A stretch of DNA of 48,913 nucleotides, the filler included, from Stramenopiles sp. TOSAG23-3 (taxonomy: Eukaryota): the NCBI GenBank assembly GCA_900128585.1. It is 4 parts of 4 records of this genome, joined end to end, with 100 filler letters (N's around TTAATTAATTAA, not from the genome) between each part and the next. Parts side by side here need not be neighbours in the genome. Positions count along the whole stretch, not along the records: positions 44,840 to 46,826 come from LT645177.1; 3 more parts are not named here. One strand, 5' to 3'. Below, in pieces: positions 44,840 through 48,441 of the stretch. A model generated the notes under the pieces. That model ran no database searches. It was given only the letters and a program-made list of their open reading frames with translations, and was not told where the DNA came from. The first letter of the stretch is position 1. The number at the start of each line of letters is the position of its first letter. Both the position numbers and the translations under genes were made by a program.

Positions 44840-46711
44840 AGCTCGCGAGCTGGGCGGCGTATTCGTATTCTCTTCGAGGGTCTTCATCTTTGTTCACCCA
44901 TTGCGCCGTCAAAAGGGAGCGCCCTCTCCCGTCTAAGGCAAGGTTAGCTATCGCCGAGCACGCCGTGGCGCGAGTGAAATTCGAACGGCTAGCGAGCATC
45001 GCGCAGATGCTCGGAATGCAGTGGTTTGTGGCTACTTTAGACCGAACCAAATCGACGACCCCGTCAAAATTCCAATACGCGGAGTTCTCGGAGAAAATCC
45101 TTGGGAACAACCGGAAGTCACGCAAAGGACCCCAGTTTTCTCCGCCCTCGTAACTGTTCCCAAGAGTGAAGACTCTGGACTCCGGTCTGTAACCGACAAG
45201 AGTGTCTCCCATCTTCTTCCCGTTTAGAAAGAAGTCCATCACGGGCTGGTTCTCTAGGCCTTCCGCCCTCTGCCTTGAATAACCCATCAGGCAGAGATGA
45301 AACCACTTGGACTCCGTGCAATCCTCGTCATCGATTAGCGAAACACCCAAACAGTGCCAATGGGCGTACAGTGAGCTCGGGTCGGCGTTTCCGGCCTGCA
45401 ACGATCCTATTCGCCCTTCATCATCCGTACAAACGATTTTGTCCCCGTTCGTGCTCTGGATCAGTGTGTGCAGCTGACCCTTTTTTAGCCAAGCCCCTCC
45501 CCAAAACCAAACAGAAATGGTGAATTCCTTAGGAAGCTGAATGCCGTTGGGGTCTAGAATTATCGTGTCCATTTTTGAAAAGAAAACGACCCCAGGGGCC
45601 ACGCCTTTCCTTACGCCGCCCTGCTCCACGACCTTGGACTCGCTCTTTTTTGAAACGTGAACGGGCAGCGTGCCCTTCTTGGCCGCCGGAAAGTAATTCC
45701 CGCTCGAATCCAGAAACAGCCTTTCCTGGGACTCAAATGTCATCCAAAGCAAAAGTCCCCCGGGTGATTTTGCAAGACTGGAGAGGACAGAAAGAGACTG
45801 GGCCCGGGAGGAAACTTTAACGCTTAAGGTGTAAACGGTCATGGTTTGCTCCAGCCGCATGCACTGGTTCACGTAGTCCAGGCACGCCTCGTCGCAAATC
45901 CCTTCTCGGATCGAGTCAAAATGGGAAAGATTCGCGAGGCAGCTCATTGCCATCCACTTCTTTGTTGGGTCTGGTCGGCCGGTAAAGATACGTTTTACGA
46001 CCACCAGGATTGACTTCAGGTCAATTGCAAAATCGTTGTCGGGAGTGGTCCGTTAGTGACGTTTGATCGAATGGAATAGAAGGAAAGAAAGAACGGGGGT
46101 ACTTACCATCTGTGAAAACAAAATAAAAAATAGAAGAATATTGGAGGTAGTGTCCGTTAGTGACGTTTAATCGAATGAATAAAAATTAAAGAAAGAACGG
46201 GGGTACTTACCAAGGGTTTGAATGCCATCAGACGAATGTACTCTCCACGAAGGAACACATGGGCGGAGCTGAGGACGATAATTTGGAGAAGGATCTCCGT
46301 CTGGTCCGGGATGTTCTGAACGAGCATGTCAACGATGGTCCGCGGGCCTTTGTTCGAAAACGCCCTGACCGTTTGGCTGTACCGCAGCTCGTCGTCCTCA
46401 GATGCAAATACCCCGATGTCCAGCTGAAACCACTCCCTGATTATCAGCAGTGCCTCCCCTCTCACGTTTTCGTTGGGGCTATTGCAACAGGCTACAACAG
46501 TCTCGACGTCGTCCTTGAAGCTCCGCTGGGAGATCCCATGATCCTTCACCTGCTTGTCGCGAAAAAGGACGAGCTCGTTCACCACGTCTGTCGTGATCGC
46601 ATGCCTGATCTGCTGAAGCACGTCGTGCGCATGATCTTCCTCCTTTGCTTCGACAAGGAAATGCAACTCGTTCAGGAGTGAGAAAACGGGGAGGGATGCT
46701 TCGTTTCCCAT
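44840..46711 (-). CDS. N-myristoylated armadillo-repeat protein with an inserted LamG/concanavalin-like domain; exons 46711-46211, 46109-46107, 46013-44840 (3' truncated by gap)
   Basis: Start MGNEAS. ARM-like helices (AMSCLANLS, ACSAIANLA). LamG motifs EFTISVWF, WFHLCLM, FFLNGK, FTLGN...GPLRDFRLF. Two track ORFs joined by phase-0 GTAAGT introns give KPL-M-SIL. Confidence 0.65.
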
Positions 46712-46826
46712 GGAGTTTTCTGAAAGGAACAACCTAACCTACTTACTATAAAAAAATCTCCAAATTTCACTTGTATTCTTCATCAATTAGCACTTTGAAC
46801 TTATTTTAAATTACAGAAGACTGATT

Positions 46827-47331: not shown

Positions 47332-48441
47332 TCATACACGTTGACCATTACAAATCCACTCCTCTGTTACCCTTTTGTACTTGATGGTCTCCCGAAGATA
47401 GGTATACATGACATGGATGTTGCCATCGCTAGTCTGCAGAACAGTAGGATAACTAAATTCATAGGGTCCCTTATTTTTCCCCTCGAAATATTTTTCTGAC
47501 ACCCCGTGCTGAAGATTGCGTTGACAAGTCCAAGATTTTCCATTATCTTTTGAAATAGCAATGGCCAAAGGATCGCGCCAGTGTGTTGTTGGGTTGAAAA
47601 CCAGTACTATGTCACCAGATATCAACGTGTTTGCTTCGATGCCAGCATTATTGTTTGGTAACTGCGTTGGGCTTGGATCGCTCCAATCATTTGACATAAG
47701 AACTTTTGCACTGGATGCATAAATGTTCTTTGAACGCCTGTCTCGAAACAAGGTTAACCATGAATCACTCAAGTGAACCGTCGATGGTTGGACCAAATAT
47801 TGACTTCCCGCCAAAGGCATGAAATTCCATCCTTCAGTCGAACCAATATTTCTATCTGGTCCTGAAAAGCCAAAGATAGCGTAATTCTGATTGTCGAATT
47901 TCGAATTTGCATTGCTGGCATTGTAGAACGGAAACATTACTCCCCCATCGCCCGAAGGAATTATACGATTGCGCGAGAAGGCTCCAGGAACAGTTAACCA
48001 AGCTTTAGGTTTTGTCCAAGTGTCACCAAGATCATCACTTTGTAAATGCCATATTTGCGCCATAGCTTCTCCGCTGGATGCTGCTGCTTGGGAATGAAAT
48101 AAGTGCAGTCGTTTCTGAACTTTGTCATAAAATAACACAGGGTTTTGGTTCGAATACCCGTCTCTTTTCGAGAGCGTTGCAGCCGTGGTCCAACTAGTAC
48201 CATTCAGCCTAGAAAACACGATGGCACAGCCCGAGGCTTCTTCAGCCTTTCCCGAAAACCATGCAGCTGCCAGTCGTCCGTCTGGCAAAACTTCAATTGT
48301 CGATGCATGATTCGATGCATACGGAGGAATCATGTACGCACTGAATGATCCGTCTCCTTCTGGACGTATGACACCATCAAAGGCTGGGTGACCAAAGGCA
48401 ATAGGGAGTGCGCACACCAAAGAAAGAAGACACAGCAACAT
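47332..48441 (-). CDS. Secreted BNR/Asp-box beta-propeller glycosidase (sialidase-like, BNR_2 type)
   Basis: Signal peptide MLLCLLSLVCALPIAFG; HASTIEVLPDGRLAAAWFSG; NPVLF; Asp boxes SDDLGDTW and SKDNGKSW; EFSYP; IHVMYTYLRETIKY. First ATG at 48441. Confidence 0.85.
   Translation of the reverse strand: MLLCLLSLVCALPIAFGHPAFDGVIRPEGDGSFSAYMIPPYASNHASTIEVLPDGRLAAAWFSGKAEEASGCAIVFSRLNGTSWTTAATLSKRDGYSNQNPVLFYDKVQKRLHLFHSQAAASSGEAMAQIWHLQSDDLGDTWTKPKAWLTVPGAFSRNRIIPSGDGGVMFPFYNASNANSKFDNQNYAIFGFSGPDRNIGSTEGWNFMPLAGSQYLVQPSTVHLSDSWLTLFRDRRSKNIYASSAKVLMSNDWSDPSPTQLPNNNAGIEANTLISGDIVLVFNPTTHWRDPLAIAISKDNGKSWTCQRNLQHGVSEKYFEGKNKGPYEFSYPTVLQTSDGNIHVMYTYLRETIKYKRVTEEWICNGQRV

Follow-up and report, generated by a model that had tools for sequence, protein, structure and literature searches.

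A putative 3-nt exon between two sister introns of a gene in Stramenopiles sp. TOSAG23-3, overlaid by an assembly-level gap

The window analyzed here, a stretch of 48,913 nt from Stramenopiles sp. TOSAG23-3, consists of contigs chained through N linkers, and the gene of interest lies on the minus strand of one of them (C6803; 1,987 nt, window positions 44840–46826). The parent assembly, G000, comprises 28.4 Mb of eukaryotic sequence and is fragmented into 7,088 contigs. In the order of transcription, the contig holds exon 1 (46211–46711; 167 codons, ending ...AFKPL in phase 0), intron A (46110–46210), an ATG triplet (46107–46109; Met168), the 5′ part of intron B (46051–46106), a breakpoint (46048–46050), and the late part of a long last exon (44840–46049), which encodes an ARM/HEAT-like and a LamG-like region and runs off the contig end. 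Exon 1 is 57% identical to a homologous protein, P0001, and is represented among same-species open reading frames (P0002 and P0013–P0016); a contig from an RNA library spans 46205–46690 on this side of the gene. The host protein, of ~1,620 residues, gives weak HEAT and LamG signals (the Laminin_G_3 match, with an E-value of 0.0014, falls below the cut-off), and leads from the ESM Atlas at 0.85–0.91 point to ARM and LamG (neurobeachin/ALFY-like) regions. A distant paralogue of the LamG-like region (28–36% identity) lies on the plus strand elsewhere in the assembly (L012/L015, G000:C6651:11819–12835). The next contig of the window carries, on the minus strand at 47332–48441, an intronless gene for a secreted-type protein with BNR repeats (sialidase-like; Pfam BNR_2, E-value 1.3e-46).

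Among the holders of this stretch other than its source (word share of at least 0.5), the best 13 either are metagenomes of marine or seawater origin or carry no label. Comparisons with wild DNA were based on 10 contig pieces from four DNA runs, and those with RNA on seven pieces of assembled contigs from three RNA runs; parts of the locus that these pieces leave uncovered count as no evidence. The exons vary little among runs, by a few bases per kb. Wild contigs of runs X15 and X6 have a substitution at 46397 in common, and those of X6 and X17 show a one-base length polymorphism at 46742–46743, upstream of the start.

Both introns open with GTAAGT and contain a CACTAAC branch motif. In intron A (101 nt), the motif lies at 46162–46156 and the predicted splice would use a CAG acceptor; these signals, together with the ATG at 46109–46107, had been proposed in a preliminary description of this DNA and are borne out by the sequence. 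Retention of intron A would bring an in-frame stop after 17 codons. The ATG, which falls in the size class of exons of at most 15 nt, is flanked by canonical sites in this single assembly (CAG-ATG-GTAAGT) and would be included in the mRNA. The donor of intron B begins at 46106 and its branch motif lies at 46058–46052; this 5′ part is known from G000 alone, and the true 3′ end of the intron is absent from the assembly.

The two introns were originally described as identical over their first 23 nt, and they are. Aligned without gaps (46212–46152 with 46108–46048), they agree at 54 of 61 positions with a repeat period of 104 nt; inside the introns, where only the 5′ 59 nt are comparable, 52 of 59 positions (88%) are identical. 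The similarity begins 2 nt (TG) before each donor, and the introns are like each other but unlike the exons on either side. Even with the donor and branch motifs left out, the alignment scores 56, compared to a maximum of 32 in 20,000 shuffles. It is also the top score among the 528 pairs that can be formed from 33 motif-matched candidate introns in the fetched loci; a pair from two different contigs, unrelated to this locus, follows at 53, and the next pair reaches 24. That runner-up pair, L032 (C750:7243–7311) and L034 (C1401:7692–7746), both on the minus strand, has a donor-to-branch-like stretch in common and could represent two introns of low copy number or, alternatively, a repeat located between genes. 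The differences between A and B had been attributed to substitutions and indels. The substitutions stand, and all seven differences are of this kind; the indels do not, as they lay beyond the breakpoint and came from aligning intron with exon.

Where, then, does intron B end? It had been drawn as a 93-nt intron (46106–46014), with the caveat that it might be a misjoin or might have captured exon sequence. The caveat was correct: the 3′ end was misplaced, and 46049–46014 is conserved coding sequence. Contigs of runs X3 and X9, which are metagenomes from two studies, match the gene up to 46050 and then continue with the same 30 different letters, which are coding and end in N-E-L-Y-E. P0001 (1,734 residues), the closest full-length homologue, aligns with exon 1 up to residue 206; the alignment resumes at residue 1185 (1185–1638), exactly at the TPDNDF of the supposed intron tail, so that the peptide PDNDFAIDLK, previously taken as part of intron B, belongs to an exon. 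In a cluster of same-species proteins, eight of nine have the N-E-L-Y-E sequence before TTPDNDF (the ninth is a later-starting fragment), and seven of those eight have at least 850 residues upstream. The C-terminal 402 residues encoded in the window are identical at 401 positions to one of these proteins, P0025, from its residue 959, and 956 codons (2,868 nt) of P0025 are absent from the contig along with the end of B. From the exit of the wild contigs at 46050 and the ~956 additional codons, we conclude that 46049–46014 belongs to an exon and that a deletion or misjoin of ~2.9 kb has brought it next to B. The product FKPL-M-SILVVVKR suggested earlier is thus not the natural one, because the exon continues upstream of 46050 in natural DNA.

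The wild contigs, the protein comparison, a 3-nt microhomology (GAC, common to B and the exon) at 46048–46050, and the lack of the missing middle in a search across G000 together mark 46050 as a deletion-type junction. A non-canonical acceptor directly after the branch motif of B was also considered; given the gap, it is unnecessary. The gap is an event separate from the proposed copying of an intron, and amplification chimera, misassembly (misjoin), and a deletion confined to the source DNA are equally open as its cause. Chimeras of the deletion-junction form do arise during amplification, usually with 2–21 nt of complementarity, and direct joins of less than 10 kb made up only 11 of the 475 chimeras reported (PMC1855051). 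A practical lesson follows: an in-frame assembly gap of 2.9 kb can mimic the end of an intron.

The protein comparisons also bear on the ATG itself. All five homologues examined, which represent three divergent lineages with mutual identities of 38–60%, have Met at the microexon column and read P-[LI]-M-L-Y with no gap; ATG is thus the expected codon. Of three splice models, the one that joins exon 1, Met, and the exon beginning LYIIP is gapless and scores best against all five, leading by 11–16 points, which is essentially one gap penalty; relative to the homologues, a one-intron model inserts a Gln, and skipping of the microexon deletes the Met. The preliminary description had proposed a comparison with orthologues for the presence of the introns, and this was informative: the orthologous locus L014, whose translation matches P0001, is uninterrupted and intronless across the site. 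Two further homologues, P0020 and P0022, are continuous reading-frame calls through the site; this suggests that there is no intron there, and transcript contigs could be an alternative source of the continuity. P0023 is a gene model given without its intron structure. The case for intron gain is one of parsimony and of the youth of A and B. Whatever the tree, at least one of the introns is young, given that A and B agree at 88% of positions and the nearest protein shows 44% identity. Three elements of the original description are supported: that the introns are homologous twins, that they enclose a microexon for Met, and that an intron was gained recently.

Is the A–ATG–B arrangement present in nature? 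On indirect evidence, we consider this probable. Direct coverage is sparse: none of the 10 contig pieces from the four DNA runs covers 46051–46345, the exact A–ATG–B pattern occurs in neither metagenome nor viral contigs, and none of 20 candidates in prokaryote genomes displays the twin pattern. Out of 203 candidates, a protein-level scan for wild DNA over the twin retained a single locus, that of L014, the distant orthologue. Spliced joints were absent from the three RNA runs, none of whose seven contig pieces crosses the whole site; the single RNA-library contig that reaches it enters A by 6 nt, unspliced. Within the known sequence, no reading frame of at least 30 residues with an ATG start crosses A–ATG–B. 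No contig of run X2 (word share 0.95) could be placed on the locus, and the word shares of X2 and X3 are compatible with one-intron and two-intron models alike. Further evidence comes from a same-species cluster of exon-1 proteins (six members from 20 contigs of up to 58.6 kb, which may include G000 itself). Five of the six read into A-type sequence, none reads into B-type sequence, and the sixth ends before the site. Intron A is thus real, and the notion that B is an allele of A is ruled out. Nor can B be placed in the missing middle, because that middle is one open frame in P0025.

If only A were real, the gene would continue directly as ATG-CAG, and B would stem from a second chimeric join or from a merge of cells or haplotypes. 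The contig is, after all, rearranged 59 nt downstream of the ATG, B appears in no other data examined, and two of nine same-species downstream reading frames (P0025 and P0030) begin with M-Q followed by LYIIP, a start that can be read as a genuine ATG-CAG after a single intron. The simplest reading of the M-Q start, however, is that the call was initiated within B, at its final six bases (xTG-CAG), an ending found in three of the 33 candidate introns. Moreover, six of eight long downstream calls start ~100 codons further downstream, which would fit a weak, non-ATG, or variable upstream start. A single-intron gene would also carry a Gln that is absent from all five homologues, two joins would have to fall within 60 nt of each other, and the template for B would have to be 12% diverged from A, being neither its allele nor present elsewhere in G000, a divergence that contrasts with the few differences per kb among exons. 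We accordingly hold this explanation to be improbable.

The preliminary description had raised the possibility of introner activity and had proposed a genome-wide search for copies of the intron in unrelated genes. Such activity is not supported. A DNA search placed the intron at one site only, and a pattern search of G000 (28.4 Mb) for both conserved blocks, with up to three mismatches allowed, returned two copies, both in this gene. One extra match to a 13-mer is antisense within an open coding stretch that appears Kelch-like by eye, and a one-mismatch search gave nine matches, which is at control level (11 in total, compared to 12 in the control). Intron A has no stable fold (−5.4 kcal/mol, z = −0.20); no inverted repeat is listed within A or B, and the flanks of A (TTG and ATG) share TG only. 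The published introner survey retains families with four or more similar members spread over genes that are not paralogous (PMC9860276), compared with the two copies in one gene found here. That A and B could belong to a genome-wide introner family is very improbable, despite their near-identity, the greater frequency of introners in aquatic species (39/230 vs. 35/1367; PMC9860276), and the fragmentation of the assembly, in which further copies could have escaped assembly.

How might the second intron have arisen? Our favored account, which we regard as somewhat better than an even proposition, is that one intron was copied 3 bases away in the same gene, leaving the conserved Met as a 3-nt exon. 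Here the intron alone would have been copied by seamless local transposition—for example, by splicing in reverse back into its own transcript or gene—rather than by segmental duplication. Simple reverse splicing into a mature mRNA would be insufficient, because any route through cDNA would need to retain the intron that was copied. In nature, B would be complete and would end in a phase-0 CAG before L-Y-I-I-P. Both introns would be spliced, and as each has a strong donor and a branch motif of its own, each could be defined alone. They would be removed one after the other, the first removal fusing the ATG to a neighboring exon and thereby avoiding crowding; skipping of the microexon would delete only Met168, in frame. 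The long intact reading frame of wild DNA argues that the splicing works.

The 104-nt period equals intron A plus 3 nt, and the similarity reaches 2 nt (TG) upstream of the donors. These features would also be expected if the twin were real and had arisen at the DNA level, by a 104-bp tandem duplication of the intron with its ATG followed by loss of a codon, or by a crossover between alleles slid by 3 nt. About half of fungal same-gene intron duplicates are segmental (PMC3609843), and TTG-ATG could provide a TG microhomology for the 3-nt loss. A plain tandem duplication would, however, add a codon that is seen neither in the homologues nor in the wild reading frame, so that a second event is needed, and such an origin would leave a set of sister introns in a second gene (see below) unexplained. 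Transposition and segmental duplication would differ in where the copied unit ends on its right side, and this edge is lost with the 3′ end of B. We judge a DNA-level origin to be unlikely, though more probable than the other alternatives. The creation of a new intron from a duplicated AGGT-containing exon segment, a published model (PMC3443670), was rejected given that A and B are unlike the flanking exons.

The second gene, L037 (G000:C2387, 729–1210, plus strand), encodes an EF-hand protein and has three sister introns, the first of 91 nt in phase 0, the second of 65 nt in phase 2, and the third of 67 nt in phase 1, with unrelated exons of 14 and 17 nt between them. Its spliced product is a clean, open EF-hand reading frame, and the scores of the three intron pairs were reached by 0, 0, and 2 of 5000 shuffles. 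These sisters differ in phase, and the exons that separate them are unrelated; for this reason, and because the protein at the A/B locus is unchanged, copying of the intron alone is favored. Intron 1 of C2387 has a doubled branch block and a flanking repeat of 5 of 6 nt (codons V-P|V-P), a hint that a duplication at the DNA level occurred in that gene.

After two duplicate loci were merged, G000 contained 39 pairs of closely spaced donors. Branch motifs accompany both donors in five of these pairs, three of which are sisters (A/B and two in C2387) and two of which are not; three of the other 34 pairs are similar but have no branch motifs. Among 12 other anchors with a neighboring candidate within 1.5 kb, one has a sister, and it lies in the same C2387 gene. 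These samples are small and motif-selected. With sisters in three of five branch-motif pairs, from two genes, local copying may explain a real share of the clustered introns in G000. Genome-wide, short-exon patterns numbered fewer than in reversed controls (11 vs. 25, 17 vs. 94, and 22 vs. 94) and are thus candidates, not an enrichment. The similar donor-like words lacking branch motifs, at L064, L078, and L085, are probably tandem repeats. At L055 (G000:C6626:3500–3640, plus strand), a 15-nt exon lies between two dissimilar introns; its unspliced DNA has no Rfam match at E-values up to 1. We offer only tentatively the broader idea that this lineage possesses a sequence-independent route that copies introns to within a few bases of the parent and so creates microexons de novo, with the ATG exon as a newborn example and the C2387 triplet as the same process repeated.

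These observations touch on two open questions: the gain of individual introns other than in bursts of transposons, and the origin of microexons. A and B, 88% identical, one codon apart, and facing intronless relatives, would represent a dated birth of a microexon by local intron copying. If both introns are spliced as proposed, the short-intron spliceosome of this protist tolerates a 3-nt exon.

Several known systems invite comparison. Introners resemble A and B in being similar introns with canonical splice signals in aquatic eukaryotes (PMC9860276), but they occupy at least four unrelated genes, compared to one gene here, and A has neither inverted ends nor a stable fold. The sister stwintrons of the Hypoxylaceae combine, as A and B would, a low-frequency, seamless spread of related introns with ordered splicing (PMC8469720). 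In A and B, however, both donors are intact in the DNA, removal of A leaves an exon codon before the donor of B, and the terminal inverted repeats described for the stwintrons (PMC8469720) are missing. Intron transposition in Oikopleura and Mycosphaerella placed homologous introns at new positions with the coding sequence unchanged, as is proposed here, with 14 events counted and indirect evidence only at the time of a 2012 review (PMC3443670, PMC4122922); unlike those cases, the insertion site of A/B would be one codon from the parent. The microexons of plants and animals (1–15 nt) are in-frame coding units that can be as short as 1 nt and have a canonical intron on either side (PMC8831610). 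The ATG exon is equally tiny and similarly placed, but those microexons are described as old and conserved (PMC8831610), whereas it would be young and lineage-specific; the introns on its two sides can still be recognized as copies, which makes its origin legible. A full-text literature search, which took in few subscription papers, turned up no example of a 3-nt exon bordered by sister introns.

The closest match is the fungal class of same-gene duplicated (SGD) introns, which counts 82 members from 11 of 24 species; half are segmental, and half may have been transposed within a transcript (PMC3609843). Like these, A and B are near-identical introns of ordinary length, restricted to one gene as far as a fragmented assembly displays them, low in copy number, and of no special stability, and if both are spliced they fit the class as described (PMC3609843). 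They differ in that the copies lie 3 nt apart and isolate one codon, and in that the host is not a fungus; the fungal account, in its description of the class, gives no spacing and no microexon case (PMC3609843). What would be new here is therefore not the class, which is already known, but the spacing, a single codon and thus an extreme for introns duplicated within one gene, at a locus where a gap in the assembly is superimposed.
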